From: Centroscyllium fabricii
Lineage: Eukaryota
Direction of reading: 5' to 3'
Assembly: GCA_051313645.2 (NCBI GenBank)
Contig: JBNRSN020000003.1
Location: 195,052,001 to 195,116,000 of the forward strand
DNA: 64,000 nt
A program made the translations under genes and the position numbers. Shown in pieces: positions 3,641 through 53,928 of this stretch. Under the pieces are notes generated by a model that was not told the DNA's origin, searched no databases, and saw nothing but the letters and a program-made list of their open reading frames with translations. Each line of letters opens with the position of its first letter. Position 1 is the stretch's first letter.

Positions 3641-3660
3641 CATATTTACTGTCTGTTATT

Positions 3661-4486: not shown

Positions 4487-4497
4487 CCTCGTCGCCA
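4487..4497 (-). promoter_or_regulatory. Primer-binding site, tRNA-Ser(GCU) type
   Basis: Minus strand TGGCGACGAGG next to the LTR end, complementary to a tRNA 3' end ...CCUCGUCGCCA. Confidence 0.8.
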
Positions 4498-18702: not shown

Positions 18703-19066
18703 ATTTTTTTTTATTCATCACGGGATATGGGCATCACTGGGAAGGCCAACATTTATTTTCCATCCCTGATCACCCTTAAGAAGGGGTTAGTGATATGCCT
18801 TCTTGAACCGCTACAGTCCATGTGGTGAAGGTATTCCCACAGTGCTGTTAGGGAGGGAGTTTCAGGATTTTGACCCAGTGACGAGGAAGTAATGGCAATA
18901 TAATTCCAGTTCAGGATGCTGTGTGACTTGGAGGGGAACTTGGAGGTGCTGGTGTTCCCATGTGCCTGCTGCCCTTGTCCTTTTAGGTGGTAGAGGTCGT
19001 GGATTTGACAGGTGCTGTCGTAGAAAACCTGGTGAGTTGTTGCAGTGCATCTTGTAAATGGTATTG

Positions 19067-22000
19067 TGTGGCGGCACGCCCACTAGGACACCGAATCCGC
19101 CATGGGAACACTGCGGGGCATGGCCCCGCTCATCCGGGTGACGCGATGACGTCACCACGACTTCCGGCGTGATGACGTCACCAACGGCGGGCAGTTTAAA
19201 TAAGCCTGCTTTGAGTGGTTCACTCTCTTCCTGTGTAACTGTAATGCATTAAACAAGTGTTTTCTCTAGCTCTCTGGCTCACACGTGGTTTCTAGGCCTT
19301 GCTGGCGCTACAGTGGTGACCCCGAATTGGAACGACTTCCAAAGAAAAAAGCTGCCGCAGGATCAAGGATCACCAGCCTAAGGACACTTTAAAAGGGAAA
19401 ACATGGCTGCAAGAGTAAGGAACCAAGCTCCACGAACCCAAGGACTTGGCCAGAACTTCGGGCACAGACTTACCCTGCCAGAGTTCTGGGAGCAACGGCC
19501 AGCGGCCTGGTTTATGTGTATTGAAACCAGCTGCCGCAAACATGGCGTCCAGGGGGACGACCGCTACGACCTGGTCTTCTCAGCCCTACCGCAATCGACG
19601 ATCGATCGGATGTGGTCCAAACTACAGTGTGTGCCCACTACAGGCAGGTACGAGACCCTCAAGGCCGCGCTCATAATTTTTTTTACCCCCTCTCAATTCG
19701 AGCGTGACTGCCAGCTCCTTAACCTCCCCGAACTCGGGGACGCAGACCCATCAGACCTTTTCGGTCAGATGCAAGCGCTCACCGCCAATCCCGCCTCCCT
19801 GTTCCGCACCATTTTCCTCCTCAAACTACCCCGCTCCATCAGACCGGCCCTGGCGGCCCTTGGCCAGCGGAGCGACGACGAGCTCGCTGAGGAAGCCGAC
19901 AGGCTCATGGCGGCAGAGCGCACCCGCTCAACCACGTGCGACCCTAACGCCGCATCTATCGAGCGCAACCACTCGCCCCCCAGGCCCAACCTCATGCCTG
20001 AACCAAGGCCCCCGCGCCCTCCCAGGCAACCGCGTCCCTCTAGCACCAGCTGGTGCTACTACCACACGCGGTTCGATAATAAAGCGCACCGCTGCGTCCA
20101 GCCATGCGCATTTAAGCCACGGCCCACCCCAGCCCCCACTATGTCTGTAGGACACACAGGAGCACTGCTCTTTGTCACAGACAGCGGCACAGGCCTCAGG
20201 TTCCTCTGCGACACAGGCACACAGCACAGCATCGTGCCAGCCTCCCCAGCAGAAGCCAAACAAGGCACCCGGGGCCTGCCACTCGCAGCGGCCAACAGCT
20301 CCAATATTAAAACGTACGGCACCCGCAAGCTCACGATTAGACTTGCAGGCCACACATATAACTGGGACTTTGTTACAGCCCAGGTCACTTCACCCCTCCT
20401 CAGGGCAGATTTCCTCTGCGCCCACGGCCTGCTGGTCGACATGACCCGGCGCGCTTGGTCGACATCAATAACATGTCGACCATCCCATGCTCCACAGGGC
20501 CCGCACTCCTGGCCCACGCGGCCGCCCAATGCCGCTCTCGGAACTCCGACGCCTACGGCACACTCTTAGCAGTGTTCCCCACCCTAACCAACCCCACGTT
20601 CACCGCCCGCCGGGCCAAACACGGGGTAGAGCATTTTATAACCACCACCGGCCCTCCCGTCCATGCCCATGCCCGCAGGCTCGACCCGGCCAAACAGGAG
20701 ATCGAGCGCACCGAGTTCCGCACCATGGAGCAACTCGGTATTATCCGCCGCTCCAACAGCCCCTGGGCCTCTCCTCTCTACATAGCCCCCAAGCCGGGCG
20801 GGGGTTGGCGCCCCTGCGGCGACTACCGCCGCCTTAACAATGCCACCACCCCGGATAGGTACCCCGTACCCCACATCCAGGATTTCTCCGCCAGACTAGC
20901 GGGCTGCACGATCTTCTCCAAGATCGACCTGGTGCGTGGCTACCACCAGGTTCCGGTGCACCCGGCGGACATTTCTAAAACGGCCGTCATCACTCCCTTT
21001 GGACTCTTCGAGTTTCTCAGGATGCCCTTCAGCCTTAAAAACGCGGCCCAGGCCTTCCAGCGCCTCATGGACTCAGTCCTACGGGACTTGACGTTCATTT
21101 TCGTCTACCTGGACGACATCCTCATGGCCAGCACCTCCCCCCAGGAACACCTCCTGCACCTCAGGACCCTGTTCCAGCGCCTGGTCGAACACGGCCTAAT
21201 ATTAAGCCCCACTAAGTGTAAATTCGGCCTCCAAACCATTGACTTCCTCGGCCACCGCATTTCCCAAACCGGGGCCATACCCCTGCCCTCCAAGGTGCAG
21301 GCGGTCCAGGAATTTCCCCGCCCGCACTCCATTAGGGGCTGCAGGAATTTCTGGGGATGGTCAATTTTTACAACCGCTTTATCCCGGGAGCGGCCGCTCT
21401 CATGGCCCCCTTATACCAGGCCACACGCGGGCAACCCGGCAAAACTGCGGTAGAGTGGACGGCCGACGCCGACACCGCCTTCACCGCAACCAAAACTGCC
21501 CTGGCTAACGCCACCCTCCTAGCTCACCCTAGGCCCAACGCCAGAGTAGCCCTCACCACTGACGCCTCCGACCACGCTGTCGGGGCCGTATTTGAACAGT
21601 GGACCGGCAACTCGTGGCAGCCCCTGGCCTTTTTCAGCCGGCAGCTCCGGCCCCCAGAGGTCAAGTACAGCGCCTTCGATAGGGAGCTCCTCGCTCTCCA
21701 TCTGGCAGTGCGACATTTTCGCTTCCTCCTCGAGGGCCGCCACTTCACAGCCTTCGTCGACCATAAGCCACTCACCTTCGTGATGGCTAAGGTCGCCGAA
21801 CCCTGGTCGGCCAGGCAGCAGCGCCAGCTCACGGCCGTGTCGGAATTTACGACCGACATTCAACACATTTCCGGCCGCGACAACGTGGTCGCTGACTGCC
21901 TCTCACGCCCCACTATTAACGCCGCCCAAATGGCGGTCGATTACGCCCAGCTGGCAGCAGACCAGCTGGCCGACCCTGACCTGCTCAACCCTGCAGCAAA

Positions 22001-23499
22001 CCTCCCCGGCCTCCACTTGGCCAAGATCGCGCACGGCCCCGCTGCCACCGTCGTCTGCTGCGACGTGTCCCTGCCGCAGCCCAGGCCCGTCGTCCCCCAA
22101 GCATGGAGGCGACACATTTTCAAGACCCTCCATGACCTGTCCCACCCCGGCACCCGCGCGTCGATTAAACTAATCTCGGCCCGGTTCGTATGGCGCGGCC
22201 TGCGCAAAGACGTCTGCGCCTGGGCCAACTCCTGCATTGCCTGCCAGCGCTCCAAAGTGCATAAGCACATCAGGGCACCGCTGGAAACGTTTACAGTGCC
22301 GGCCAGACGCTTTGACCACGTCCATATCGATCTCGTTGGGCCACTACCGCCATCCCGGGGCCACACGCATGTAATGACCATGGTCGACCGCAAGACTCGC
22401 TGGCCAGAAGCAGTCCCCCTCGCTGCCACCGGCACCACGGACTTGGCCAGGGCGTTCATCGCCACCTGGGTCGCCCGCTTCGGCGTGCCCACCGACATCA
22501 CCTCCGACAGAGGACCCCAGTTTACGTCAGCACTATGGGCGGCCATCGCCCGCGACCTCGGGGTAACCTTGCATCGAACCACCGCATACCACCCACAAGC
22601 TAACGGGCTCTGCGAACGGTTCCACCGCTCTATGAAAGCATCACTGCGGGCCACCCTCAAAGATGCGTCATGGACCGACCGTCTCCCATGGGTCCTCCTC
22701 GGGCTGCGCTCGGCAGTCAAAGAGGACCTAAACGCCTCGGCAGCAGAACTCGTCTACGGCCAAGCCCTAACAGTGCCGGGCGAATTTCTAGCCAAGCCAA
22801 ACGCTCTCTGGTCAGCCGACCAGTACCTAAAGGACTTTGCCAACCACTACCAGTGGCCCGGCACGGAGAGCCAGCAGCACGAGTACCGGATGGCATTAAA
22901 AATTCGAAATTTGTGTTCGTCCGGCGCGACGGACACCAATCACCACTACAGCCACCATACGATGGCCCTTATAGAGTGCTTCGGGCGGGAGCTAAAGCTT
23001 TCCAGCTTCAAATGGGCAACAGAACAGAAACGGTTTCAATAGACCAGCTCAAACCGGCACACGTTATAGCGGGCGAGACGACAGTCCCCGCACAACCACC
23101 GCAACGCGGACGCCCTCCCGCAACAACACCCGCCCACACTCCACCGCAGAACCAGGAACAATGCACAACACGGGCCGGCCGCATCATCCGGCCACCCCAA
23201 CGGCTCACATAGACTCTTTCTTATTCTCCCGGACAGATTCTGGGGGGGAGCTGTGTGGCGGCACGCCCACTAGGACACCGAATCCGCCACGGGAACACTG
23301 CGGGGCATGGCCCCGCTCATCCGGGTGACGCGATGACATCACCATGACTTCCGGCGTGATGACGTCACCAACGGCGGGCAGTTTAAATAAGCCTGCTTCG
23401 AGTGGTTCACTCTCTTCCTGTGTAACTGTAATGCATTAAACAAGTGTTTTCTCTAGCTCTCTGGCTCACGCGTGGTTTCTAGGCCTTGCTGGCGCTACA
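19067..23499 (+). mobile_element. Full-length Gypsy, CsRN1-type (copy A); LTRs 19067-19312 and 23254-23499
   Basis: 246-bp TG..CA LTRs (5 mismatches by eye); PBS TGGTGACCCCG (tRNA-Trp); PPT GGGGGGGAG; CHCC Gag motif; flanks ATTG/ATAC (imperfect TSD). Confidence 0.97.
19403..23212 (+). pseudogene. gag-pol of copy A, frameshifted
   Basis: ORFs 19403-20569, 20455-21453, 21357-23042 and 22670-23212 give Gag-PR(CDTG)-RT(YLDD)-RH(TDAS)-IN(GPY). Confidence 0.93.
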
Positions 23500-25904: not shown

Positions 25905-28900
25905 TGTGGCGACACGCCCACCAAGACCAACGAATCCGCCTCGGGAGCACTGCGGGACACGGCCCCGCCCGCCGGGCGGCGTGATGACATCACCGTGACT
26001 TCCGGCGTGATGACGTCACCGGGACTTCCGGCAGTGACGTCACCAACCGCGGGCCCTTTAAATATGCCTGGTCCAGGTGGTTCAGTCTCTTCGCTACCTG
26101 GCCCTTGCAGTGTTAACTATTAAATGAGTGTTATCCGATTTCGCTGTGTCTAGCGTGGTTCTTCAGGACTGCATGCACTACAGTGGTGACCTCGATACTT
26201 GGAACGACTTCCAAGGGAACATAATGAAGCAGTTGCTGCAGGACTGAGGGCCAAGCTGCCTCAGTACACTCCCAACCAACATGCCAGCAGGGAGCCAAAC
26301 AGCGCGACTCCACAGACTGGGCCAGAACTACGGCCAAATACCAACCTTGCCAGAGTTCTGGGAACTACGTCCAGTGGCCTGGTTCCTCAGCACGGAGAAC
26401 ACCTACCGCATCCATGGCGTACAGGGGGACGATCGATACAGCCTGTTCTTCTCGGCCCTTTCGCAGACCACGGTCGACCGAATGTGGTCATCGATACAGC
26501 ACGAACCAACCGCTGGCAGGTACGAATTTCTTAAGGCCGCGCTGCTAAAGAAATTCACCTCCACCCAGTTTGAGCGCGACTGCCAGCTCATTAACCTCCC
26601 CGAACTCGGGGACGCAGACCCATCGGACCTCTGGGCCCAAATGGAAGTGCTCAATTGCGACCCGGCCACCATTAAGCGCGCCTTGTTCCTCCTCAAACTG
26701 CCTCCCTCCGTCAGACCGGCTCTGACGATCCTCGATCACTACACTAAAGAGCAACTGGCTGAGGAGGCCGACAAGCTGATGAGGGCCGAGCGCACCCGAG
26801 CCGCCACGTGCGAGCCCACTGCCGCGGCACCGGAGCACTACTATGCGCACCCCAGGGCCGGCCCCAAGTCTGATCCTAGGCCAGTGCGCACCCGCAAAAA
26901 GCCGCGCACAACAGGCCCCGGCTGGTGCTACTACCACACCAGGTTTGAAGCTAAAGCGCAGCGCTGCGTCCAGCCCTGCACCTTCAAACCCCAAACCAGC
27001 CCAAGCCCCACCATGTCCATAGGCCGCTCTGGAGCACTGCTCTTCGTCACGGACAGCAGCTCAGGCCTCCGCTTCCTCTGCGACACAGGCGCGCAGCACA
27101 GCATCGTGCCAGCCTCCCCCGCAGAAATCAAGCAAGGCACCCAAGGCCCACCACTCGAAGCCGCAAATGGCTCCGAGATAGTTACGTTCGGCACCCGCAA
27201 GCTCACCATCAAGCTAGCAGGCCACACGTACCAGTGGGACTTCATCGCAGCCCAAGTTAAACTACCCCTCTTCGGGGCCGATTTTCTCTGCGCCCACGGC
27301 CTACTGGTCGACGTAACTCGGCGCCGCCTGGTCGACATCCTTAACATGTCGACCATCCCATGCTCCACAGGGCCGGCACACCAGGCCCACGCAGCATCCC
27401 ACTGCCGAGCCCGGAACTCCGACACGTACGGCACGCTCCTCGCGGAGTTCCCGGCCCTCACCAACCCCACCTTCACAGCCCACACGGCCAAGCATGGGGT
27501 GGAGCATCACATCACCACCACAGGCCCCCCAGTCCACGCCCACGCACGCAGGCTGGACCCGGCCAAGCTGGAGATCGCGCGTACCGAGTTCCACATCATG
27601 GAACAACTCGGCATAATCCGCCGCTCCAGCAGCCCCTGGGCCTCTCCCCTCCACATCGCCCCCAAACCCGGCGGTGGCTGGCGCCCCTGCGATTACTACC
27701 GCCGCCTCAACAACGCCACCACCCCAGACAGGTACCCCGTACCCCACATCCAAGACTTCTCAGCAAGGCTAGCCGGCTGCACGGTCTTTTCAAAGATCGA
27801 CCTGGTACGGGGCTACCACCAAGTACCAGTGCACCCGGCGGACGTCCCTAAGACAGCCGTCATTACCCCGTTCAGCCTTTTCGAGTTTCTCCGAATGCCC
27901 TTCGGACTCAAAAACGCGGCCCAGGCCTTCCAACGCCTCATGGACTCAGTCCTACGGGACTTGCAGTTCACGTTCGTCTACCTGGACGACATCCTCATGG
28001 CCAGCACCTCCCCCCAGGAACACCTCCTCCATCTCAGGACCCTGTTCAAACGCCTGGTCGAACACGGCCTTATATAAAGCCCCTCCAAATGTCGGTTCGG
28101 CCTCGAGACGATCGACTTCCTCGGCCACCGCATTTCCCAGACCGGGGCCATACCCCTGCCCTCCAAGGTGCAGGCAGTCCAGGAATTCCCCCGCCCGCAC
28201 TCCATCAAGGGGCTGCAGGAATGCCTTGGGATGGTTAATTTTTACAACCGCTTCATCCCAGGAGCAGCCGCCCTCATGGCACCCCTCTATCAGGCCACCC
28301 GCGGGCAGTCCAACAAGGCTGCGGTCGAGTGGACGGCCGAAGCCACCACCACCTTCACCGCAACCAAAACCGCCCTGGCCAACGCCACGCTCCTAACCCA
28401 CCCTAGGCCCAATGCCAGAGTGGCCCTCACCACCGACGCCTCCGACCGCGCCGTCTGAGCAGTCCACGAGCAGTGGACAGGCAACTCCTGGCAACCCCTG
28501 GCCTTTTTCAGCCGGCAACTCCGGCCCCCGGAGGTCAAGTATAGCGCCTTCGATAGGGAGCTACTCACTCTCTACCTCACAGTGCGCCACTTCCGGTTCC
28601 TCCTAGAGCGCCGCCACATTACAGCCTTCGTAGGTCACAAGCCACTCGTGTCAGCAATGGCTAAGATCGCCGAACCCTGGTCGGCCAGGCAGCAGCGCCA
28701 GCTCGCGGCTGTGTCGGAGTTTACCACCGACATACAGCACATCGCCAGCCATGACAACGTGGTCGCTGACTGCCTGTCACGCTCCACCATCAACTCCGTA
28801 CAAACGGCCGTCGACTACGCCAAAATGGCTGCTGACCAACTGACCGACCCTGATCTGCTCGACCCAGCTACCAACCTCCCCGGCCTGCACTTGGCCACCG

Positions 28901-30478
28901 TAGCACATGGGCCCACAGCCACGGCGGTCCGCTGCGACGTCTCCCTCCCGCAGCCCAGACCCGTCGTCCCCCACGCATGGAGGCGACACATCTTCCAGAC
29001 CCTCCATGACCTGTCCCACCCCGCCGCCCGCGCGTCCACGAAGCTGATTTCGGCACATTTCGTTTGGCGTGGCCTGCGCAAGGATGTCCGCACCTGGACC
29101 AACGCCTGCACTGCCTGCCAGTGCGCCAAGCTGCACAAGCACATCAAGGCACCACCAGAAACGATCGCCATCCCAGCTAGACGCTTCAGCCACGTCCACA
29201 TCAACCTGGTCGGACCACTAGCGCCATCACGGGGACATACACACGTCATGACAATGGTCGACCGCAGCACCCGCTGGCCAGAAGCGGTCCCACTCACCGC
29301 TACCACCACTGCGGACCTGGCCAGGGCCTTCATCGCCACCTGGGCCGTACGTTTCGGCGTACCCACCGACATCACGTCGGACAGGGGCCCCCAATTTACC
29401 TCAACCCTATGGGCGACCATCGCCCACGACCTCGGGGCAACCCTGCACCGAACCACCGCCTACCACCCACAGGCCAATGGCCTCTGCGAACGTTTCCACC
29501 GCTCCATCAAAGCTTCCCTGCGGGCCAGCCTTAAGGATGCAACCTGGACCGACCGCCTGCCCTGGGTAATGCTCGGCCTATGCTCAGCGGCCAAGGAAGA
29601 CCTGCACGCCTCAGCGGCTGAACTCGTCTACGGCCAACCCCTAACCGTACCAGGCGAGTTCGTCGCAGAAACCACCGCCCCCTGGTCAGCCGACCGCTGC
29701 CTCAAGGAATTTAACAATCAGGCAGGGGCGTTCAAACCACTCCCGGTGGCCCGGCATGGAGAGCCGGCAACACGTGTTCCAGATGGCATCAAGAACGCCA
29801 AATATGTGTTTGTCCGCCACGACGCACATCGAACACCACTACAGCCACCGTACGATGGACCGTACAGAGTGCTTCGGGCGGGACCTAAGACATTCCAAAT
29901 CAAAATGGGCAATAGAACTGAGACTGTCTCAATTGACCAGCTCAAACCGGCACATGTAATGGCGGGCGAGACAACAGTACCCGCGCAGCCACCAAAACGC
30001 GGACACCCTACCGCACCAAAGCCCGCCCACACTCCCACGCAGAACAAGGAGCAGCGCATGACACGTGCCGGCCGCATCATCCGGCCACCTCAACGCCTCG
30101 CCTGAGACTCACCTTTTATGCTCCATTTTTTTATTTTTACTTTATTCTCCCTTTTTTATTTTTAACTTTATTCTCCCTCACAGATTCTGGGGGGGCGCTG
30201 TGTGGCGACACGCCCACCAAGACCAACAAATCCGCCTCGGGAGCACTGCGGGACACGGCCCCGCCCGCTGGGCGGCGTGATGACATCACCGCGACTTCCG
30301 GCGTGATGATGTCACCGGGACTTCCGGCAGTGACGTCACCAACCGCGGGCCCTTTAAATATGCCTGGTCCAGGTGGTTCAGTCTCTTCGCTACCTGGCCC
30401 TTTCAGTGTTAACTATTAAATGAGTGTTGTCCGATTTCGCTGTGTCTAGCGTGGTTCTTCAGGACTGCATGCACTACA
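25905..30478 (+). mobile_element. Full-length Gypsy, CsRN1-type (copy B); LTRs 25905-26182 and 30201-30478
   Basis: 278-bp LTRs (6 mismatches by eye); TSD GTGC; PBS TGGTGACCTCGA; PPT; CHCC motif. Confidence 0.97.
26281..30105 (+). pseudogene. gag-pol of copy B; one frame with two premature stops
   Basis: ORFs 26281-28077, 28168-28458 and 28582-30105 share a frame; stops end at 28077 and 28458. Confidence 0.93.
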
Positions 30479-31009
30479 GTGCCATACAACATGATGGAGG
30501 GTGTCCTCAGTGTGAAGACAGGACTTCGTATGCACCTGGACTGTGCGGTAGTCACCACTACCAATACTGTCACAGACTGGTGCATCTACGACAGGTAGAT
30601 CGGTGAGGACGAGATCAAGTAGGTTTTTCCCTCATGTTCATTGTTTCGCCACCTGCTGCAGGCCATTCTGACAGCTATGTCCTTTAGGACTCAGCCAGCT
30701 TGGTCAGTAGTGGTTCTGGAGCCCCAGCTTATAGTGCTTTGAAAGGTTGGAACTCCCATTCTATTAAGTTTGAAAACGCAGCTGTACTGATCTGGGGAAA
30801 TGCTGAGCATGTAACGGTTTGGTGGTGGGGCCCAAATGCAAGACACTGGGACAAACGGTCTAGAGCTAAGATTCCTTTATTTCCCCAATTAGCCAATGCC
30901 AAAACATCTATATACATACAGTCAAAATATAACAATACAGAAATCAACGACATACACAAAAACGCTTCGGATCCCCAGGACACTCAGCGAAGAGCATCAA
31001 AGAGTTAGG

Positions 31010-31509
31010 AACTAGAACAAGCTTTCTTCTGTGCGTAGAACCTTTTACAACGACTACTACCATCAGAGTGGAACAAGCTTTATTTTGAACTGGAACAAGT
31101 TTTCTTCTGAACTGGAACAAGCTTTCTTCTGTGCGTAGAAGCTTTTACAATGACTACTACCATCAGAGTGGAACAAGCTTTATTTTGAACTGGAACAAGT
31201 TTTTTTCTGAACTGGAACAAGCTTTCTTCTGTGCGTAGAACCTTTTACAACGACTACTACCATCAGAGTGGAACAAGCTTTATTCTGAACTGGAACAAGC
31301 CTTCTTCTAAACTGGAACAAGCTTTCTTCTGTGCGTAGAACCTATTACAACGACTACTACCATCAGAGTGGAACAAGCTTTATTCCGAACTGGAACAAGT
31401 TTTCTTCTGAACTGGAACAAGCTTTCTTCTGTGCGTAGAACCTTTTACAACGACTACTACCATCAGAGTGGAACAAGCTTTATTCTGAACTGGAACAAGT
31501 TTTCTTCTG
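31010..31509. repeat. 5 x 100-bp tandem array in the 3' LTR
   Basis: ACT(A/G)GAACAAGCTTTCTTCTGTGCGTAGAA recurs at 31011, 31111, 31211, 31311 and 31411. Confidence 0.97.
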
Positions 31510-32140
31510 TACCCCCAGGACACTCAGCAAAGAGCATCCAACATAACTGAAGGGGCATCATAGTAATACGAATTAATGTCCAAACCTGAGTACAGGTGAT
31601 TGAGAGCAATGTCCAGAATATAGAAACAGGAATTCTCCAGGGTCAACTCCCCCGAGGAGACTAACTCCAACAGAGCCTTCAGCAGGAGAATCCATCTCTT
31701 CTACAAGCAGGGGAACTCCCCACATAAGACTGCCTCCACGGAGCTAGGACAGCACATCTGTATCCTAGTAGTAGGTAACGATCCGGCAATCTCCTGTTGT
31801 CAACCAAAAGCTTAAATACAGCTCAAGCTAATTGAGTAATTAGCTCAGTCCCCTTAATTGCACAAAACAATAAACGAGGTACAACTAGCTGTATTAACAG
31901 GAAAACAAGGTACAATGAACAAAACAGAGAACAGACATAGAATTCAAAGATGGAATCTTTAAAGGAGAATTCCATCTATGACAGAACCCCCCCCTCAAAG
32001 GACGACTGCTGACGTCCCAAATACCCAAATGCCGGAATAGGGTGGGTGGAGGGGTGCGGAGGAGGGACTAACCGTCCTTCAGGATTAAAAGGAATCCGAG
32101 GTATGCTAGATGCTACAGTGTCTGCTGGGCCCCCCTTTTG

Positions 32141-32151
32141 GCCGGATCGTT
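32141..32151 (-). promoter_or_regulatory. Self-priming PBS
   Basis: Minus AACGATCCGGC is the exact complement of minus GCCGGATCGTT at 33120-33130, about 30 nt downstream of TATTTAAG (33154-33161). Confidence 0.85.
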
Positions 32152-32352
32152 CTGTAACGGTTTGGTGGTGGGGCCCAAATGCAAGACACTGGGACAAACG
32201 GTCTAGAGCTAAGATTCCTTTATTTCCCCAATTAGCCAATGCCAAAACATCTATATACATACAGTCAAAATATAACAATACAGAAATCAACGACATACAC
32301 AAAAACGCTTCGGATCCCCAGGACACTCAGCGAAGAGCATCAAAGAGTTAGG

Positions 32353-32852
32353 AACTAGAACAAGCTTTCTTCTGTGCGTAGAACCTTTTACAACGACAAC
32401 TACCATCAGAGTGGAACAAGCTTTATTTTGAACTGGAACAAGTTTTCTTCTGAACTGGAACAAGCTTTCTTCTGTGCGTAGAAGCTTTTACAACGACTAC
32501 TACCATCAGAGTGGAACAAGCTTTATTTTGAACTGGAACAAGTTTTCTTCTGAACTGGAACAAGCTTTCTTCTGTGCGTAGAACCTTTTACAACGACTAC
32601 TACCATCAGAGTGGAACAAACTTTATTCTGAAATGGAACAAGCCTTCTTCTAAACTGGAACAAGCTTGCTTCTGTGCGTAGAACCTTTTACAACGACTAC
32701 TACCATCAGAGTGGAACAAGCTTTATTCCGAACTGGAACAAGTTTTCTTCTGAACTGGAACAAGCTTTCTTCTGTGCGTAGAACCTTTTACAATGACTAC
32801 TACCATCAGAGTGGAACAAGCTTTATTCTGAACTGGAACAAGTTTTCTTCTG
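32353..32852. repeat. 5 x 100-bp tandem array in the 5' LTR
   Basis: Same array, offset 1343 bp. Confidence 0.97.
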
Positions 32853-35650
32853 TACCCCCAGGACACTCAGCAAAGAGCATCCAACATAACTGAAGGGGCA
32901 TCATAGTAATACGAATTAATGTCCAAACCTGAGTACAGGTGATTGAGAGCAATGTCCAGAATGTAGAAACAGGAATTCTCCAGGGTCCGCTCCCCCGAGG
33001 AGACTAACTCCAACAGAGCCTTCAGCAGGAGAATCCATCTCTTCTACAAGCAGGGGAACTCCCCACATAAGACTGCCTCCATGGAGCTAGGACAGCACAT
33101 CTGTATCCTAGTAGTAGGTAACGATCCGGCAATCTCCTGTTGTCAACCAAAAGCTTAAATACAGCTCAAGCTAATTGAGTAATTAGCTCAGTCCCCTTAA
33201 TTGCACAAAACAATAAACGAGGTACAACTAGCTGTATTAACAGGAAAACAAGGTACAATGAACAAAACAGAGAACAGACATAGAATTCAAAGATGGAATC
33301 TTTAAAGGAGAATTCCATCTATGACAGAGCAGATGCGATAGGCGTGATTTTATCCCTTCCTGCACATGGGTAATGGTGTGGGCGGGATTTATGATTTCAG
33401 TGGGGGTTCTGCCATGTTCCACCTCCCATTCAACTTCCCTGCATTAAGTCACAAGAATAATGTTTAAGTCACAGCCCGGTGATATAATCAGGATGCACAC
33501 TCATTTTGCTTAGTGGCAACAATCCTGCTTCTGAATCAGAAGGTGATGGATTTGAGCCCCATTCCCAGTAGCCTCTGTGATTTTAATATGGTCTCTAAAT
33601 ACTGGGTTGAAATCCAGCAGGGTACTCACATCTGGACAGTGTGACCGCTGACTCAGTGGTAGTATTCCTGCCTCTAAGTCAGCAGAGTTAGGTTCAGGCA
33701 CCGTTCCAGACAACCCTGGCAAGTGGAGACTGGAGTGCTAGTTCTGAATGCTGGATTAACATGTAGCGGGTTTACTTATGTCTAATTGATGTGGGTTGCC
33801 CCCTCTCCCCATCATCGTAGAGAGTCCATGGAGCTGTTTAGCTTTGGTTATAACCTACCAAGGTACTCTGAAGATGAAACCATGAGGAAGGCAACAGGAA
33901 ACCACCTCAGCTAGTCTTCCCTTGTTAGTGGTGCAAGAGTCCCACGTGTACGACTTGTGTTAGGACCTGCCTGCGGACAGAACACAGTGAACGAAACTTG
34001 AAATAAAGAAAAGGGATGAGACAAAATCAATCTTGAAGGCTCACTTTCATTCTCTTGAAAAACACCTCCAAAGCAGAGATGTGGGAGCAGATGCATCAGG
34101 GACATTTGCATTTCCAATCTATCAAAAGAAAGAATGCTCTATCACATCCTGAAAATGATCAGCCTGAGACTGTCGGGCTACATCTGGATGCAAAATACAT
34201 TCATTTGGGAAAGCTAAATGAAAATTGTTATTGTAAAAAAATGTTTCCAATTACTGTATAATCTGCAGTCATATCTAATTTCCTTTGATGGATCAGTTGA
34301 TTGAAGCAATAAGTAACTGAACCATATGAATCAGACAGGTTCCAGGGTCAACGTCTGACCTCTGCTGAGTTAACCAATCTCAGCTAGGGAGGTAGTAGGA
34401 GTGTTCCATTTGGATTCCCCATCCTTTGGTTAGAAAAGGGGAAATCAGCTAGGGTTCTGCTTCTGATCACTATCCAGTGACCCCTGGTGGAAGTGCACAT
34501 GTGATGCCCCAGGTGGTTGAGTTCAGGGTGGAATTTTAACCCCAAAAATGGGTGGGTTTGGGTCGTGTGAGATGTTAAAAATGTTTAAATCTCAAATCCA
34601 ACCCAACCCGCCCACTTCTATTTTTAATGGAGGCGGGATGGGGAGTAGGCAACTAACTCACTCTCCGGAGGTGGGTTGTCCATTATAATGAGGCTGTGTG
34701 CCTCAGATTTAACCTATCTTCCAGGTTTAACCCTGGCAGTAAAAGGGAGGTGAGTACTGCTTCATGAAAAAGTGCCTTTCCAGCCCTGCTTGTGGGCCAG
34801 GAGGAGCAGGAGTACTTTCTCCGAGCCCACCAAGTTTACCCTCTTTCTAAATCAACAAATATATTACTAACATTTCTCAAACATATTACACAGTATTATC
34901 TGCAGCTTACTATAACTGTTAGCTATATAACACGCAAAACAGAACAAACTTTGTAATGTAGCAACAAAGCCTCCAGCACTTTTTGGCACAGTCAGCCATC
35001 AAGACCAAAGCTAAGGAACTCTGTCATCACTGTCCAACTTGAACAACTCAACCCAGCTCTCAGTCGATCTCTTGTCAGCAGTACATTTTTCCACAGAATC
35101 CTTATTTACAAAAATCATATGATCCCTCTGGTTAATCACATTCTGAAATACGATTCATTTGCTTTTGATGGCTTCTCTATGATTTCTGCTTTTTGAATCC
35201 TTTGACATGGGCCTCTGAGGATACACTCCCAAACATTAGCCACCTAGTCATACTATCCAGCTATGATAGTCTGCCTCATTTTTTCATTTGCACTAAAGGT
35301 AATTAGGTCTTCAGTCACCCAGGTTTCCCACAGCTTCATGAGGGCAACTTGAGGATGGTTTTGCCAAATACGTTAATGTCCTGAGAATGAATATTAAAAA
35401 AAATCAGGTCATTTTTCCTTTAGACAATTGTTATTTTTGAAGGGCATGTAAGGATTTTGTCTTTCTTCCTTCAATCCCACATATTGGATGAAATAACATT
35501 GAAACCACATACTGCTGTTCAGTTCCCTTTCTCCTCAGCAATCTTCTATGGCCTTCATCTTCAAGGCAGTAGAACAACTCATTCCTCTCAGGCCCATTTT
35601 AAATAAGATCTAATTTAAAATCAACTTAGCAATCTTGTAATGTGCAAGAT

Positions 35651-41696: not shown

Positions 41697-44600
41697 TGTA
41701 GTGCTTGCAGGACCCAAGAACCACACAGGAGCCAGAGAGACAGATAACACTCATTTAATTACATTACTAAGCAAGAAAGAGACTGAACCACGAGGGGCAG
41801 GCTTATTTAAACTGCCCGCTTAGTGACCTCATCACGCCGAGAGACGTGGTGACATCATCGCGTCACCCGGTGGGCGGGGCTATGCCCCGCAGACTCCCGA
41901 GGCGGATTCGCCAGTCTGGTGTGCCGCCACACAGCTCCCCCCCAGAATCCGTCCGAGAGGAGAAAGAGTCTATGTGAGGCGTTGTGGTGGCCGTAAGATG
42001 CGGCCGGCACATGTCGTGCGTTGCTCCTCGTTCTGCGGTGGAGTGTGGGCGGGTGTTGGTGCGGGAGGGCGTCCGCGTTGAGGTGGTTGGGCGGGGACTG
42101 TTGCGTCGCCCGCTATAATGTGTGCCGGTTTTAGCCGGTCTATAGAGACAGTTTCTGTACGATTGCCCAGCTGTAGCTGAAAAGCTTTTGGTCCCGCCCG
42201 AAGCACTCTGTAGGGGCCGTCATAAGTTGGCTGTAGTGGTGAGCGATGGGCATCGTGCCGGACAAACACGTACTTCGCGTTTTTGATGCTGTCCGGTACA
42301 CGTGCTGCCGGCTCTCCGTGCCGGGCCACCGGTAAGGGTTTGAACGCTCGTGCCGGGTTGGCGAAGTCCTTGAGGAACTGGTCGGCCGACCAGGGAGCGT
42401 TTGGTTCGGCGAGGAACTCGCCCGGCACTGTTAAAGTTTGGCCGTAGACGAGTTCTGCTGCTGAGGCGTGTAGATCTTCTTTGGCCGCCGAGCGCAGCCC
42501 GAGCAGTACCCACGGAAGACGGTCGGTCCATGATGCGTCTTTGAGGCTGGCCCGCAGGGATGCTTTCAAAGAGCGATGGAACCGTTCGCAGAGCCCGTTA
42601 GATTGTGGGTGGTATGCGGTGGTTCGATGTAGGGTTACCCCGAGGTCGCGGGCGATGGCCGCCCATAGTGCCGACGTAAATTGGGGACCTCTGCCCGACG
42701 TGATGTCGGTGGGCACGCCGAAACGGGCGACCCAGGTGGCGATGAACGCCCTGGCCAAGTCCGTGGTGCTGGTAGCAACGAGGGGGATTGCTTCTGGCCA
42801 GCGAGTGTTGCGGTCGACCATGGTCATGACGTGTGTGTGGCCCCGGGATGGCGGTAGTGGTCCGACATGGACGTGGTCGAAGCGTCTGGCCGGCATGGTG
42901 AAAGTTTCCAGCGGTGCCTTGATGTGCTTGTGCACCTTGGCGCGCTGGCAGGCAATGCAGGCGTTGGTCCAGGCGCGGACGTCTTTGCGTAGGCCGCGCC
43001 ACACGAAACGGGCCGAAATTAGTTTGATGGAAGCGCGGGTGCCGGGGTGGGACAGGCCATGGAGGGTCTCGAAAATGTGTCGCCTCCATGCGTGGGGGAC
43101 GACGGGTCTGGGCTGCGGTAAGGAAACGTCGCAGCAGACTACGGTGGCCGCGGGGCCATGTGCGATTTTGGCCAAGCGTAGGCCAGGGAGGTTTCCTGCT
43201 GGGTCGAGCAGGTCTGGGTCCGCCAGCTGGTCTGATGCCAGCTTGGCGTAATCGACCGCCATTTGGGCGGCGTTAATTGCGGGACGTGACAGGCAGTCAG
43301 CAACCACGTTGTCGCGGCCGGAGATATGTTGGATGTCGGTAGTGAACTCCGACACGGCTGCGAGTTGGCGCTGCTGCCTGGCCGACCAGGGTTCGGCGAT
43401 CTTAGCCATTGCAAAAATGAGCGGCTTGTGATCGACGAAAGCTGTGAAGGGACGGCCCTCCAGGAGGAAGCGAAAATGGTGCACTGCGAGGTAGAGAGTG
43501 AGGAGCTCCCTGTCGAAGGCGCTGTACTTAACCTCTGGGGGCCGAAGTTGCCGGCTGAAAAAGGCCAGGGGCTGCCAGGAGTTGCCCGTCCACTGTTCAA
43601 AAACGGCCCCGACAGCGTGGTCGGAGGCGAAAGTGGTGAGGGCCACTCTGGCGTTGGGCCTGGGGTGGGCTAGGAGGGTGGCTCTGGCCAGGGCGGTTTT
43701 GGTTGCGGTAAAGGCGGTGGCGGCGTCGGCCGTCCACTCGACCGCAGTTTTGCCGGACTGCCCGCGTGTGGCCTGGTATAGGGGGGCCATGAGAGCGGCT
43801 GCTCCTGGGATGAAGCGGTTATAGAAATTAACCATCCCGAGGAATTCCTGCAGGCCCTTAATGGAGTGCGGGCGGGGGAATTCCTGAACTGCCTGCACCT
43901 TGGAGGGCAGGGGTATGGCCCCGGTTTTGGAAATGCGGTGGCCGAGGAAGTCTATGGTCTCGAGGCCGAATTTGCATTTAGAGGGGCTTAATATGAGGCC
44001 GTGTTCGGTGAGGTGCTGGAACAGGGTCCTGAGGTGCAGGAGGTGCTCCTGGGGTGAGGCGCTGGCCACGAGGATGTCATCTAAGTAGACGAAAATGAAC
44101 TGCAAGTCCCGTAGGACCGAGTCCATTAGGCGCTGAAAGGCCTGGGCCGCGTTTTTGAGTCCAAAGGGCATCCTAAGGAACTCGAAGAGGCCGAAGGGGG
44201 TAATTACGGCTGTCTTGGGGCAATCCCCCGGGTGCACCGGGACCTAGTGGTAGCCACGCACCAGGTCGATCTTAGAGAAGATCGTGCAGCCTGCTAGCCT
44301 GGCGGAGAAATCCTGGATGTGGGGTACGGGGTACCTATCCGGGGTAGTGGCGTTGTTGAGGCAGCGGTAGTCGCCGCAGGGGCGCCAGCCTCCGCCCGGC
44401 TTGGGGGCGATGTGGAGGGGAGAGGCCCAGGGGCCCAGGATTATGCCGAGTTGCTCCATGGTGCGGAACTCGGTGCGCGCAATCTCCAGCTTGGCCGGGT
44501 CCAGCCTGCGGGCGTGGGCATGCACGAGAGGGCCGGAGGTGGTGATAAAATGTTCCACCCCGTGTTTGGCTGTGTGGGCGGTGAAGGTGGGGTTGGTAAG

Positions 44601-46089
44601 GGTTGGGAACTCTGCGAGGAGCGTGCCGTATGCATCAGAGTTCCGGGCGCGGCATTGTGCCGCCGCGTGGGCCAGGAGTGCAGGCCCTGTGGAGCATGGG
44701 ATGGTCGACATGTTGTGAATGTCGACTAGGCGGCGCCGGGTCATGTCGACCAGGAGGCCGTGGGTGCAGAGGAAATCTGCCCCGAGGAGGGGTGAAGTGA
44801 CCTGGGCCGTGACAAAGTCCCAGTGATACGTGTGGCCGGCAAGCTTGATTGTGAGCTTGCAGGTGCCGTACGTCTTAATATCAGAGCCGTTGGCCGCTGC
44901 GAGTGGCGGGCCTCGGGTGCCTTTTTTGGCTTCTGCTGGGGAGGCTGGCACGATGCTGTGCTGTGCGCCTGTGTCGCAGAGGAACCGGAAGCCTGTGCCG
45001 CTGTCTGTGACATAGAGCAGTGCTCCGGTGTGTCCTACAGACATGGTGGGGGCTGGGCCGGGCCGTGGCTTGAATGTGCAGGGCTGTACGCTTTAGTGTC
45101 GAACCGCGTGTGGTAGTAGCACCAGCCGGTGCTTGATGGACGCAGTTGCCTGGGCGGGCGCGGGGGCCTGGGTTCAGGCGTTGGGTTGGACCTGGGGGGC
45201 GAGTGGTTGTGCTCGATAGCTGCGGCATTAAGGTCGCACGTGGTGGAGTGGGTGCGCTCGGCCGCCATGAGCCTGTCGGCTTCCTCGGCTAGCTCGTCCC
45301 CGCTCCGGTGGCAGAGGGCCGCCAGGGCCGGTCTGATGGAGCGGGGTAGTTTAAGGAGGAATATGGTGCGGGACAGGGAGGCGGGATCGGCGGTGAGCGC
45401 TTGCATTTGGCCCCAAAGGTCCGATGGGTCTGCGTCCCCGAGTTCGGGGAGGTTAAGGAGCTGGCAGTCGCGCTCGAATTGGGAGGAGGTAAATTTTTTA
45501 AGTAGCGCGGCCTTGAGGATCTCATACCTGCCTGCTGCGGGCACGCGCGGTAGCTTCGACCACAACCGATCGATTGTCGATTGCGGTAGGGCCGAAAAGA
45601 CCAGGTCGTAGCGGTCGTCCCCCTGGATGCCATGTGTGCGGCAGCTGGTCTCTATGCACATGAACCAGGCTGCCGGGCGTTGCTCCCAGAACTCCGGTAG
45701 GGTTAGTCTGTGCCCGAAGTTCTGGCCAAGTCCTTGTGATCGAGAAGCTTGGTTCCTTGAAGACATGTTGCTTTTTAAAGTGTTCTGAGGCTGCTTGGTT
45801 TTTAGTCCTGTAGCTGCTGTTTTCTCCTTGGAAGACGTTCCAAGTCGGGGTCACCACTGTAGCGCTTGCAGGACCCAAGAACCACACAGGAGCCGGAGAG
45901 ACAGATAACACTCGTTTAATTACATTACTAAGCAAGAAAGAGACTGAACCACGGGCAGGCTTATTTAAACTGCCCGCTTAGTGACCTCATCACGCCGAGA
46001 GACGTGGTGACGTCATCGCGTCACCCGGTGGGCAGGGCTATGCCCCGCAGACTCCCGAGGCGGATTCGCCAGTCTGGTGTGCCGCCACA
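41697..46089 (-). mobile_element. Full-length Gypsy, CsRN1-type (copy C); 5' LTR 45858-46089, 3' LTR 41697-41931
   Basis: TSD TACA; PBS TGGTGACCCCGAC (45844-45856, tRNA-Trp); PPT; LTRs differ by a 3-bp indel and a few transitions. Confidence 0.97.
41970..45766 (-). pseudogene. gag-pol of copy C, disrupted
   Basis: ORFs 45035-45766, 44244-45044 and 41970-44237; small deletions; RNase H TDAS>TFAS and integrase SDRG>SGRG substitutions. Confidence 0.93.
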
Positions 46090-48876: not shown

Positions 48877-49706
48877 TCTGTTTCTCTATCCACCAATGAT
48901 ATCTCATTTCAATCTGCTTAGTTGTCTAAAACAATTTGACCTCCTTCTCCAACCTGACTATTGAGCCCTCCTTATCTGACCTGACCTGACCTGTCCTGAC
49001 TACTGCTGTCAGCCCTTCTCACCCAACCTGACTTTCTTGGTCCCGATGGCACCCTTTTTCACCTAAACCAACATCTAGGCCTGGATTTTAGCCTCGAGGT
49101 GAGTTCTGTGTGGGTGGGGGGCAGCTGTTGTAAGGTTCGAAACAGGTTTCCTGAATGACCTGCAGGAATTAACGGCAATGCTACTTTAAGTGGGGTTCCT
49201 GCCCACAGGCAGCCTGATTGACAGGCTGGAGGCCTTTTGGGTGGGAAGCCTGCTTCACAAGGCTGAAGCCTACGACAGCAGTTGGGGTGTATTGGAGGAG
49301 TCCAAATCGCGGAGGGGTCCGGATCGCAGGGGAGCCCGATTGTAGGGCAGGGTGTCTGATGGTGGTCTGGTAAGGTCCGACTATGAGGGGGTGGTCCGAT
49401 CATGGTCAGGTTGTACAATGGTGGTGGGGGGAACAGGAAGATTGCTGGGGGTTGGGGGGGGGGGACGGGAGTGATTACTGGGTAGCTTGTTTGGCCTGGA
49501 TGAAATTCCCCTGCCCCTCCTGACCAACAAGCAGTGCTGTAAAGGCACTTACCTCATGGAGGCAGCCCTTTTTGCCTGCTTTCAGTCACCAAGTTTCCCG
49601 AGGCCTGGCAAATCTGGCCACCTGTGGTTAGAAATAGATTCACTGTTAAAATGAACGGAGTGATAATTTGCACGGCGCTTTTTGAATCCTTCTGCGCATG
49701 CAGCAG

Positions 49707-50251
49707 ATCAGAGGGGGAGGGAGAGGGGAGAGAGAGAGAGGATCAGAGGGGGAAGAGAGAGGATCAGAGGGGGCGAGAGAGAGGATCGGGGGAGAGAGAG
49801 GGGAGAGAGAGAGGATCAGAGGGGGAGGAGAGGATCGAGGGGGAGAGAGAGCGGATGGGGGGGGGAGAGAGAGGATCAAAGGGGGAGAGAGAGGGGAGGG
49901 AGAGAGGGAGGACCAGAGGGGGAGAGAGAGAGGATCAGAGGGGGAGAGAGAGGAGCTCAGAGGGGGTAGTAAGAGGGGAGAGAGAGGGGAGAGAGAGAGA
50001 GGATCAGAGGGGAGAGAAAGAGGGGAGAGAGGGGAGGGAGAGAGGGGAAGGGGAGAGAGAGGGTAGAGAGAGGATCGAGGGGGAGAGAGAGGATCAAAGG
50101 TGGAGAGAGAGAGGAGGGGGAGAGAGGGGAGAGAGAGAGAGAGAGGATCGAGTGGGAGGGTGAGAGGATCAAGGGGGGAGAGTGAGAGGATCGGGGAGAG
50201 ATGGAGGAGAGAGAGCGAGAGGATCAGGGGGGGAGAGAGGGAGGAGAGGGG
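49707..50251. repeat. Purine-rich degenerate minisatellite
   Basis: Repeated GAGAGGATC(A)GAGGGGG(AG)n units. Confidence 0.92.
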
Positions 50252-53127
50252 TGATGCGCTATCAATCACTCCAAAAGACTAGAAGTTATCCAAGTAACAA
50301 ATAGGCTTTTAATCACTAAAGAATGAGAGCGTGCCTCTGCTGATCAACTGGTCCAGGACTGAAGGGGGGTTGGGAAACAGTCACCTTTATACCTGGGTCT
50401 GAAGGAGGAGCCACAGGCAGAGTCAGCAGGGGCATGTCCAGCTAGGTTACATACAGCAGGTAAGAGTGAACTATAATACAACAACTGTGGTTTACCACAT
50501 TCACCCATTGTTTAAAATGAGTACTCCAGGGTGAAGTGGATTAACATCTATTATAAATTAAGTCTTTCGGGGGGTCTGGTCCGCCGCTGCGACCGTCGTA
50601 GTACTGGCCGCGGTTCCAATGTTGAATCCTGGGCAGTCTGGAGCACCGGAGTGTTGTCCTCAGCTGCGTCGAGTTGGCGGGTGCTTATCGACGGATCCTG
50701 GGGCCTTGGCGTGCCGTTTACAGGGGCTAGAAGAACATGCCTTGACACTGGTGCCTCGTGGGTAGCGGTGGGGGGTGAAGGTGAGGGGTGGTGGGTGACG
50801 GTGGTCTCAAGGGCTCCTGAGGTTGCTAGACCTCTGATGGAGACCGTGTCCACCCACCCGTCAGGGTACGCAACATAGGCGGATTTGGGTTTCGCGTGGA
50901 GCAGTTGGACCCTTTTGACCAGGGGATCCGACTTATGGCTCCTCACATGCTTCCGGGGTAGGACAGGTCCTGGGGATGTCAGCCACATTGGTAGCGAGGT
51001 CCCTGAGGTGGACTTCCTAGGGAAGAGAAACATTTTTTCTTGAGGAGTAGCATTGGTGGCGGTACAGAGTAGGGATCTGATTGAGTGGAGCGCATCAGGG
51101 AGGACTTCTTGCCAGCGGGAGACTGGAAGGCCTCTAGACTTCAGGGCTAGCAGGGCAGCCTTCCAGACTTTTGGTTTCTCCCTCTCCACCTGTCCGTTCC
51201 CCCGGGGGTTGTAGCTGGTAGTCCTGCTCGTGGCGACTCTTCTTGCGAGCAGGTACTAGCGCAGCTCGTCACTAATAAACGAGGAACCCCGGTCGCTATA
51301 GATATAGCTGGGGAACCCGAACAGGGCGAAGAGATGGTGCAGACACTTGATGGCCGTGGCAGAGGTCATGTCCGGGCAGGGGATGGCAAAAGGGAAACGT
51401 GAGTACTCCTCAATGATATTGAGGAAGTACACGTTGCGTTCAGAGGGGGGGAGAGGCCCTTTAAAATCAACGCTTAGGCGCTCGAACGGGCGGGTGGCCT
51501 TTATCAGGTGTGCTCTGTCTGGCCTATGAAAGTGCGTTTTGCACTCGGCACAGACTTGGCAGTTCCTGGTCATGGTCCTGACCTCCGCGATGGAGTAAGG
51601 TAGGTTGCGGGCCTTGATGAAGTGGAAGAACCTGGTGACCCCGGGTGGCAGAGGTCATTGTAGAGCATCTGCAGCCGATCCACCTGTGCGCTGGCACATG
51701 TCCCGCGGGATAGAGCATCTGGGGGCTCATTGAGCTTCCCGGGCTGGTACAAGATATCATAATTATAGATGGAGAGTTCGATTCTCCACCACAATATCTT
51801 GTTATTTTTGATTTTGCCCCGCTGCTTGTTATTAAACATAAAAGCAACTGAACGTTGGTCAGTAAGCAGGGTAAATCGTTTACCGGCCAGGTAATGCCTC
51901 CAGTGCCGCACAGCTTCCACAATGGCCTGGGCCTCCTTTTCGACAGAGCAGTGTCGCATTTTGGGGCCCTGGAGGGTTCGTGAGAAGAAGGCCACGGGTC
52001 TGCCCGCCTGATTAAGGGTAGCGGCCAGGGCAAAGTCGGACGCATCGCTCTCCACCTGAAATGGGGCGGATTCGTCCACAGCGTGCATCGCGGCCTTCGC
52101 AATGTCTTCCTTAATACTGCTGAAGGCTAGGCGGGCTTCTTCCGTCAGGGGAAAAGAGCTGGATTTGATGAGTGGACGGGCTTTGTCCGCATAATTGGGG
52201 ACCCACTGGGTGTAATATGAAAAGCAGCCCAGGCATCTCTTCAGGGCCTTGTGGCAGTGGGGCAGGGGGAGTACTAGGAGGGGGCGCATGCGGTCGAAGT
52301 CGGGACCGATGACCCCATTCTCCACAACACAGCCGAGGATGGCGAGGTGGGTTGTGCGAAATATGCATTTCTGCTTGTTGTAAATCAGGTTTAGGCGTTG
52401 GGCGGTGCAGAGAAATTTCTGGAGATTGGCGTCATGGTCCTGCTAGTCATGGCCGCAGATGGTGACATTATCCAGGTACGGGAATGTGGCCTGCAGCCCG
52501 TTCTGGCCAACCATCTCCTGTTGGAAGACTGAGACCCCATTGGTGATGCCGAAGGGGACCCTAAGGAAGTGATAGAGGCAACCATCCACCTCAAAGGCAG
52601 TGTACTGGCGGTCCTGCGGGCGGATAGGGAGTTGGTGGTACGCCGACTTGAGGTCGATGGTGGAGAATACCCGGTACTGTGCAATCTGATTGACCATGTC
52701 AGATATGCGGGGAAGCGGGTATGCATCCAGCTGCGTGTACCTGTTGATGGTCTGGCTATAGTCAATGACCAGGCGGTGTTTATCACTGGTCTTGACGACC
52801 ATCACTTGGGCTCTACAGGGGCTGGTGCTAGCCTCGATAATCCCCTCCTTCAGGAGCTGTTGCACCTCTGATTTGATAAACATTCTGTCCCCAGTACTTT
52901 ATCGCTTACTCTTGGTAGCGACGGGCTTACAGTCTGGGGTAAGGTTAGCAAACAGCGGAGAGGGGTGACTTTAAGAGTCGAGAGGTTGCAGATGTTGCGC
53001 GGTGGGTGATTTAAAGGCTGCTGGCTGTAGGCAGCGGGAGGGGGGTATGGTGCGCGGTGGGCAATTTAAAAACTGCTGGCTGCGGACAGTGAGAGGGGGA
53101 AGCGGCCCATTGTACGCCATTGTGACA

Positions 53128-53259
53128 TAGAAACATAGAAACATAGAAACATAGAAAATAGATGCAGGAGTAGACCATTCGGTCCGTCGAGCCATGGCTG
53201 AACACAAGAGCACAAGAACACAAGAACACAAGAACACAAGAACCCAAGAAATAGGAGCA
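53128..53259 (-). mobile_element. Two stacked, extremely truncated CR1/SINE 3' tails
   Basis: (CATAGAAA)n then (CACAAGAA)n, each with a few bases of the CR1 terminal hairpin; flanked by GTGACA duplication. Confidence 0.8.
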
Positions 53260-53531
53260 GTGACACTTTTAAGGTGGCATTGGAAGTCTAGCCCCAGTAG
53301 CACCGCAGCGCAGAGCTGTGGTAGGATGAAGAGCTTGAAATCCTTGTACTCCGTGCCCTTCACAGTCAGGGTCACTACGCAGTAGCCGCCGACGTCCGCT
53401 GTATGGGACTTGGAGGCCATAGAAATCTTTTGGCTTGCTGGCATTACTGGGAGGGAGTAGCGCCGCACCGTGTCGGGGTGGACAAAGCTCTCCGTGCTCC
53501 CGCAGTTTGCATCGCGGCCATTTACCTTAAA

Positions 53532-53928
53532 GGGCGGCACGGTGGCACAGTGGTTAGCACTGTTGTCTCACAGCACTGGAGACCCGGGTTCAAATCCAGC
53601 CTCGGGTACTATCTGTGTGGAGTTTGCACATTCTCCCCGTGTCTGCGTGGGTTTCCTCCGGGTGCTCCGGTTTCCTTCCACAGTCCAAAGATGTGCGGGT
53701 TAGGTTGATTGGCCATAATAAATTGACCCTTAGTGTTAGGGGGTTTGAATATGTGGGATTACGGGGATAGGGTGGGATATGTGTCGATGGAGGCTCGATA
53801 GGGATATGGGGAGAGGGCCGGGGCGGGGTACTGGGTTTGGATGATCAGCCATGATCTCATTGAATGGCGGAGCAGGCTCGAAGGGCCGAATGGCCTACTC
53901 CTGCTCCTAGTTTCTATGTTTCTATGTT
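53532..53928 (+). mobile_element. HE1-type V-SINE
   Basis: tRNA head (TGGCACAGTGG; GGTTCAAATCC), V-domain GGGTTTCCTCCGGGTGCTCCGGTTTCC, CR1-derived tail (TTTCTATG)n. Confidence 0.93.

Follow-up and report, generated by a model that had tools for sequence, protein, structure and literature searches.

In the long terminal repeat (LTR) retrotransposon Tf1, the transcript's initial 11 bases are reported to pair with its primer-binding site (PBS); RNase H cuts between bases 11 and 12 (PMC7175516). Self-priming of this kind has been demonstrated for Tf1, is an accepted property of the Tf1/sushi group with its vertebrate members (PMC6317226, PMC4600332, PMC5341516), and is described as implicated or predicted in vertebrate Tf1/sushi elements; accounts of the group depict a self-complementary PBS within a three-duplex structure, the "pretzel" (PMC10085805, PMC7175516, PMC4600332). 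Here, we analyze an LTR element at positions 30805-33331 of a 64,000-nucleotide stretch of Centroscyllium fabricii DNA (GenBank assembly GCA_051313645.2, contig JBNRSN020000003.1, positions 195,052,001 to 195,116,000), hereafter the window, whose numbering is used throughout. We conclude that this element is very probably a young member of a multicopy, non-autonomous family derived from a Tf1/sushi-type chromovirus, and that it is likely mobilized in trans and likely self-primed.

The element reads on the minus strand (TGTCA...TTACA) and measures 2517 bp. Its two 1174-bp LTRs (5' LTR, 32153-33326; 3' LTR, 30810-31983) enclose an internal region of 169 bp. An earlier note on this DNA, made from the letters alone, had estimated about 12 substitutions between the LTRs, or roughly 1%; alignment yields exactly 12 (seven transitions and five transversions, 1.02%) and no indels. 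The internal length and the target-site duplication (TSD) GAGCA that the note had described were likewise recovered, the latter at 30805-30809 and 33327-33331. At the right junction, contigs assembled in both samples from four DNA runs extend past the LTR end to the flank, but they span just 27 LTR bases, fewer than the bridging threshold requires. The PBS (32151-32141) begins one base past the LTR, lacks the TGG of a tRNA PBS, and is exactly complementary over 11 nt to LTR positions 33130-33120, as the note had said; a match of this length anywhere in the LTR has a chance probability of about 3e-4, without counting its position relative to the TATA-like box TATTTAAG. The first T of that box (33161-33154) lies 31 nt from the start of the LTR 11-mer, close to the 30 nt previously estimated, and the 11-mer, of which the 3' LTR holds a second copy (31787-31777), would make up nt 1-11 of the predicted transcript. 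Translated in frame, the internal region gives GGPADT, which includes the GGPAD stub of the earlier note, and the internal region ends in the G-rich polypurine tract (PPT) GAGGGGGGGG (31987-31996), followed by TTC and the 3' LTR; an identical tract precedes the 3' LTR of coding relatives. A coding role of the stub was considered and ruled out, the frame having no ATG and the pol stop being kept.

The earlier note had suggested a genome search for the internal junction, which proved to be multicopy, with separate TSDs, rather than unique. With the internal region as query, 2,015 first-look candidates were obtained in the 7.2-Gb assembly, and all 40 that were scored are 97-100% identical across at least 164 of the 169 nt. 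An exact 31-nt pattern covering the LTR end, PBS and leader has 387 matches (control, 0), while a tighter junction pattern, specific to one subfamily, has 13 matches only. The 3' end of the family LTR occurs 2,598 times; among 30 sampled occurrences there are 16 solo LTRs, six 5' LTRs, three 3' LTRs and five that were left unresolved. The internal region measures 161-170 bp in 54 of 55 distinct loci and 368 bp in the other. Complete copies have LTRs of 774-1308 bp and total lengths of about 1.9-2.8 kb, and the two LTRs of 31 complete single elements diverge by 0.20-1.83% (median, 0.85%). TSDs were scored for 64 insertions: 39 are exact over 5 bp, four match over 5 bp with one mismatch, eight are exact over 6 bp, two insertions have none, and 11 were not resolved. 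These data confirm that the studied element is a member of a mobilized family.

Such copies could also have multiplied as DNA, by segmental duplication, tandem amplification or repeated post-insertion deletion, instead of by retrotransposition. Tandem arrays do exist in the family, and one of them was duplicated together with its flanks, as this explanation would predict. However, insertions have their own TSDs and 52 distinct right flanks among the 53 resolved, the LTRs within a copy differ by only 0.2-1.8%, and a single junction is common to 54 of the 55 loci. We give multiplication as DNA next to no credence, and the TSD and LTR data already largely refute it. The LTR-sharing arrays themselves (L118-L124) contain two or three internal units, and the five that could be resolved each lie within a single 5-bp TSD; L123 and L124 represent one array, with identical flanks about 10 kb apart, which likely reflects segmental duplication or else a duplicate in the assembly. 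LTR-sharing arrays are known for TRIMs, the terminal-repeat retrotransposons in miniature (PMC4717578, PMC6934838), and Tf1 arrays are reported to form by integrase-independent annealing (PMC11042837).

About one in six insertions in this group carries a 6-bp TSD (8 of 53 resolved family insertions). Among coding relatives, such TSDs were seen in three of 18 two-LTR elements (two exact and one near-exact) and in one of nine solo LTRs. The idea that 6-bp TSDs mark a second helper was ruled out, since the relatives have them as well. One family copy (L116) bears an insertion of about 4.5 kb within its 3' LTR (1673-7453 in element orientation).

The family's origin can be traced within the same genome. 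A looser pattern that includes an ATG after the PBS retrieved 8,250 relatives, of which 182 share the family's PBS variant. Full-length relatives have an internal region of about 4.5 kb with gag, protease, reverse transcriptase (RT), RNase H and integrase, and their Pfam domains are RVT_1, RT_RNaseH, rve, SH3_Tf2-1 (a Tf2-type SH3 domain) and Chromo; the lineage's gag matches PEG10, and the best match of its pol among solved structures is Ty3. DNA identity to these relatives is seen for both halves of the family's internal region; its positions 75-169 align with the 3' end of most relatives, full-length as well as shorter, at 87-94% identity. In the studied element, the segment at 31984-32079 comprises the last pol codons of the parent chromovirus, with the former stop at 32070-32068, and its 3' untranslated region. 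Internal regions fall into nested size classes of 4.5 kb, 1.97 kb, 712, 642, 368 and 168-169 bp that are linked by common junctions. The 1.97-kb form retains gag, protease and chromodomain; the 712-bp form joins 57 nt from the start of the 1.97-kb form to 660 nt from its end, with 93-96% identity; the 642-bp form bears the family's PBS variant; and in the 368-bp form the ATG is already missing. The family itself, at 168-169 bp, shares the junction of the 712-bp form, with the deletion extended to the last pol codons, and comparison with the 712-bp and 368-bp relatives places the youngest deletion junction at 32075-32090, where about 5 nt of microhomology can be made out by eye. In a midpoint-rooted FastTree phylogeny of 83 LTR stretches of about 290 nt, from which the 11-mer was omitted, the 368-bp copy is basal in the family, at a support of 0.99, with the 642/712-bp class adjoining it (0.92). 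From the nested classes and the tree we infer the order of the deletion steps. At the level of sequence homology, these comparisons show descent of the family from the genome's Tf1/sushi-type chromoviruses by nested deletions and not by a single one.

The large size of the LTRs is explained mostly by tandem expansion of a 100-bp unit, five copies of which account for about 500 bp of each LTR (32352-32852 in the 5' LTR, within the putative R region; 31009-31509 in the 3' LTR). Every unit contains an extra AATAAA, and the unit has no match in coding relatives. The last AATAAA of the LTR, some 70 nt short of its end (32219-32224 in the 5' LTR; 30881-30876 in the 3' LTR), is conserved in position in most family copies and in relatives; it is likely the poly(A) signal, in which case R would span about 0.9 kb in the studied element. 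Sushi LTRs are described as having AATAAA near the LTR 3' end (PMC3601003). The period of the tandem units in R varies by subfamily (about 65-69, 89, 100 or 137 bp), and a difference of at least 50 nt between the LTRs of a single copy is seen in 17 of 31 single elements.

Since the family encodes no protein, we looked among its relatives for candidate helpers. Twelve full-length relatives have LTR divergences of 0.2-1.1%, overlapping the family range, and make the same mixture of 5- and 6-bp TSDs; two of the twelve have unbroken gag and pol frames. Their closest LTRs are about 70-77% identical to the family LTR, over parts of it only. Sushi-type relatives that share the family's LTR ends, PBS and PPT and are of similar age are thus present as likely counterparts of the autonomous sushi partner anticipated by the earlier note, but no full-length one with the family's own LTR was found. 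We consider it likely that these cousins mobilize the family in trans. The genome also contains a young class of non-autonomous elements (L043, L049, L053, L197, L198 and L204) whose internal region measures 1.8-2.0 kb and whose LTR divergence goes down to 0/541; in L043, a single frame of 611 amino acids fuses gag, protease and chromodomain, with loss of RT, RNase H and the core of the integrase. This class may provide Gag in trans.

Evidence for self-priming was sought by comparing the primer and PBS across 102 loci, which after removal of five duplicates and 10 array members comprised 47 family copies and 40 ATG-bearing relatives, 30 of the latter chosen by PBS variant. The primer site was located in 44 of the family copies and 39 of the relatives, and within a search window of about 25 nt its distance from the TATA-like box was 31 nt in 82 of 83 elements. 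Primer and PBS are perfect 11-nt complements in 34 of the 44 family copies and 28 of the 39 relatives. At PBS position 3 and primer position 9, the family has C:G in 28 copies, T:A in 11, C:A in two, T:G in two and C:T in one; where both LTRs of a copy agree, the counts are 25 C:G, 10 T:A and one T:G. At PBS position 8 and primer position 4, relatives have C:G in 22 cases, T:A in 12, C:A in five and T:G in none. The joint changes placed on the tree include one from T:A to C:G that makes CpGs on both sides. Joint change would be expected under selection and also if plus-strand synthesis copies the primer into the PBS, as the account in PMC11042837 would imply; either way, it implies pairing of the two sites. 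The distance from primer to LTR end is 578-1389 nt in the family vs. 291-697 nt in relatives. A fold of the full transcript leaves primer and PBS unpaired, but their pairing would cross the stem described below and form a pseudoknot, which is beyond the program's model. Our findings suggest that the family is likely self-primed, with a predicted transcription start near 33130.

A trans-mobilized element could instead be primed by a host RNA (a tRNA, tRNA half or small RNA) or by the 11-mer of a helper RNA, its own LTR match being inherited baggage. The family copies with a primer:PBS mismatch would fit such priming, and given that 182 ATG-bearing elements share the PBS variant, a co-packaged RNA could supply the primer. 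Against this, the PBS does not start with TGG, and one subgroup changed its PBS and LTR 11-mer jointly (T:A in 11 copies, and in 10 of the 11 T-type copies whose two LTRs agree), while C:G is retained at the same position by 36 of the 39 relatives sampled, which points to pairing in cis. We therefore regard priming by another RNA as very unlikely and self-priming from the element's own LTR as the better account.

The region around the PBS also appears to be structured. The 101 nt that surround it are predicted to form a long stem whose loop contains the PBS (-38.3 kcal/mol; z = -3.68; matched by 0 of 200 shuffles), with one predicted arm in U5 (32170-32191) and the other at the former gag start, now without ATG (32116-32133). 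Across 14 stem pairs in 68 of 75 distinct junction sequences, 98.9% of 951 cells are paired, compared with 26-55% in slid controls; the alignment did not place four inner pairs correctly, and these were scored by motif instead. One pair occurs as A-U, G-U and G-C (38, 17 and 13 sequences) with no A-C. Two gag-start positions differ between the groups: a C-A mismatch, paired in none of 39 relatives, and a mostly U-U position, paired in nine of 39, are both C-G in all 47 family copies, the second by a two-sided change. Median local folding energy is -36.4 kcal/mol in the family vs. -23.8 in relatives, and z falls below -2 in 45 of 47 family copies. We propose that the GGPAD stub is the 3' arm of a conserved, predicted U5-leader stem and thus more than a leftover, and that loss of the ATG accompanied perfection of this predicted stem in the family. 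The earlier claim that the element keeps only promoter, self-primer, PBS and PPT accordingly needs amendment: those signals are present, but the stub is also a predicted stem arm. Tf1 is reported to require two duplexes flanking the primer duplex in the pretzel (PMC10085805), and the family's predicted stem fits the downstream one. For the upstream duplex, a conserved 20-nt R motif (32920-32939), about 190 nt from the predicted start, is a weak candidate partner of the U5 end.

Self-priming could be correct and the stem nonetheless incidental, the stub persisting merely because it adjoins the PBS. Two-sided pair changes are few, and coding relatives have a weak stem (median z, -1.4) and a 3' arm that is constrained at the protein level as well. 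Yet the non-coding U5 arm keeps its complementarity even though the LTRs are elsewhere only about 70% alike, the pair seen as A-U, G-U and G-C avoids A-C, two gag-start positions became C-G in the family, and Tf1, as described in PMC10085805, needs flanking duplexes of this sort. We judge an incidental stem unlikely and favor a retained U5-leader stem.

In human immunodeficiency virus type 1, U5 pairing over the gag start acts as a switch between translation and priming or packaging. A comparable U5:AUG switch in vertebrate sushi elements might trade translation for priming and packaging, and the parasite, by dropping the start codon, might have locked the priming state and out-competed its helper. 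We advance this only tentatively and think it rather doubtful; our literature search found no paper on such a switch.

Several observations weigh against the interpretation as a whole. Ten of 44 family copies and 11 of 39 relatives have no perfect primer:PBS match today. Fisher tests of joint change (p = 9e-7 and 1.6e-6) overstate independence because of CpG sites, kinship and the partly PBS-based sampling of relatives, and the tree suggests only about three joint changes per pair. Just one of the 14 stem pairs changed on both sides, which is not above shuffles (494 of 500), and only six of 40 relatives have a stem with z below -2. Candidate partners for the third, 5' flanking duplex are not above shuffles (median p, 0.7-0.8), and the same holds for the R motif. 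Most family copies carry several extra AATAAA signals upstream of the PBS that the transcript must pass. Finally, no full-length element with the family's LTR was found among 54 loci (some overlapping) or in a second set of 20.

Taken together, the following replication cycle can be envisaged. RNA polymerase II would start at about 33130, and the RNA would run through the 5' LTR. U5 would pair with the former gag start and leave the PBS in the loop, where the first 11 nt of the transcript could anneal to it. Helper RT/RNase H would cleave past base 11, as in Tf1, and extend the freed 3' end; the PPT would prime the plus strand; and helper integrase would insert the cDNA, duplicating 5 bp or sometimes 6 bp of the target. 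Recombination would likely give rise later to the solo LTRs and to the arrays that share LTRs.

The family adds evolutionary evidence for self-priming in the form of joint primer/PBS change. Its size series, running from 4.5 kb to 169 bp, amounts to a natural deletion scan and reveals indispensable cis-signals; it offers an instance of start-codon loss accompanied by a stronger predicted RNA stem; and it makes available a short, protein-free RNA for the study of vertebrate self-priming in vitro. If a U5:AUG switch did operate, the minimal vertebrate self-priming cis-element would consist of about 70 nt after the LTR and about 95 nt before the PPT.

Other repeats surround the element in the window. 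Three copies of another gypsy-type family, 72-91% alike, occupy 19065-23499, 25905-30481 and 41790-46089, with LTRs of about 248, 281 and 142 bp, respectively; the second stops about 330 bp before the studied element. From their translations, we take two further elements, at 554-3655 and 50551-55001, to be broken gypsy-like elements, and presumably a remnant of a CR1-like long interspersed nuclear element lies at 5158-7708 and a GA-rich array at 49690-50250. Repeats of these types would suit a cartilaginous-fish host. An Rfam scan of 30700-33500 gave no match at E ≤ 1, and ARAGORN detected no tRNA gene in the window.

Among non-autonomous elements, TRIMs resemble the family in that both have a non-coding internal region (161-170 bp here) with PBS and PPT, TSDs, solo LTRs and arrays with shared LTRs. 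Plants, an ant, cestodes and bivalves are recorded as hosts of TRIMs or tandemly arrayed TRIMs, and zebrafish and coelacanth as hosts of Helenus. The strict criteria, as given in PMC6934838 and PMC10886601, combine small size with a tRNA-type PBS. TRIMs measure less than 1 kb (1.5 kb when relaxed) with repeats of 100-250 bp, whereas the family's copies total about 1.9-2.8 kb and their LTRs alone reach 0.8-1.3 kb, and the family PBS is self-complementary and does not start with TGG, although no tRNA library was searched. The "TRIM-like parasite with unusually large LTRs" of the earlier note therefore holds in structure, and mobilization in trans is likely, but 2517 bp exceeds the strict TRIM size. 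Among 289 subfamilies of plant TRIMs, only 11 have larger elements related to them according to PMC4717578, whereas the family's parent can be traced stepwise. A 2026 preprint (10.64898/2026.03.01.708851) describes the 1.5-4 kb range of non-autonomous elements as undefined and grouped under a broad "TRIM" label, and the family falls within this range. Relative to TR-GAG elements, long TRIMs and large retrotransposon derivatives (LARDs), it differs in its animal host, its self-priming signature and the in-frame chromodomain fusion of its 1.97-kb stage; that 1.97-kb ancestor keeps gag and protease, as TR-GAG elements do. The features by which non-autonomous LTR retrotransposons are broadly recognized were all found: the family is multicopy and non-coding, with integrase-type TSDs, young LTR pairs and a related coding partner. 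Our literature search, which did not cover Repbase, Dfam or key papers, found no self-priming non-coding LTR family in a vertebrate, and the family may already be catalogued.

The nearest known counterparts are the Tf1/sushi chromoviruses of Ty3/gypsy (Tf1, Tf2, Tj1, Tosmo1-3 and sushi-ichi; GyDB V-clade). The family has the same 11-nt self-complementary PBS, which is complementary to an LTR segment downstream of a TATA-like box, and likewise has TG...CA ends, mostly 5-bp TSDs and AATAAA near the LTR 3' end; its parent is a Ty3/gypsy element with a chromodomain-bearing integrase. It differs from the group in its zero coding capacity, its longer primer-to-LTR-end distance and the nature of the evidence, priming having been demonstrated in Tf1 and inferred here. 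Self-priming and non-autonomous LTR elements are both already known, and the family is a well-documented variant that combines them rather than a new mechanism.

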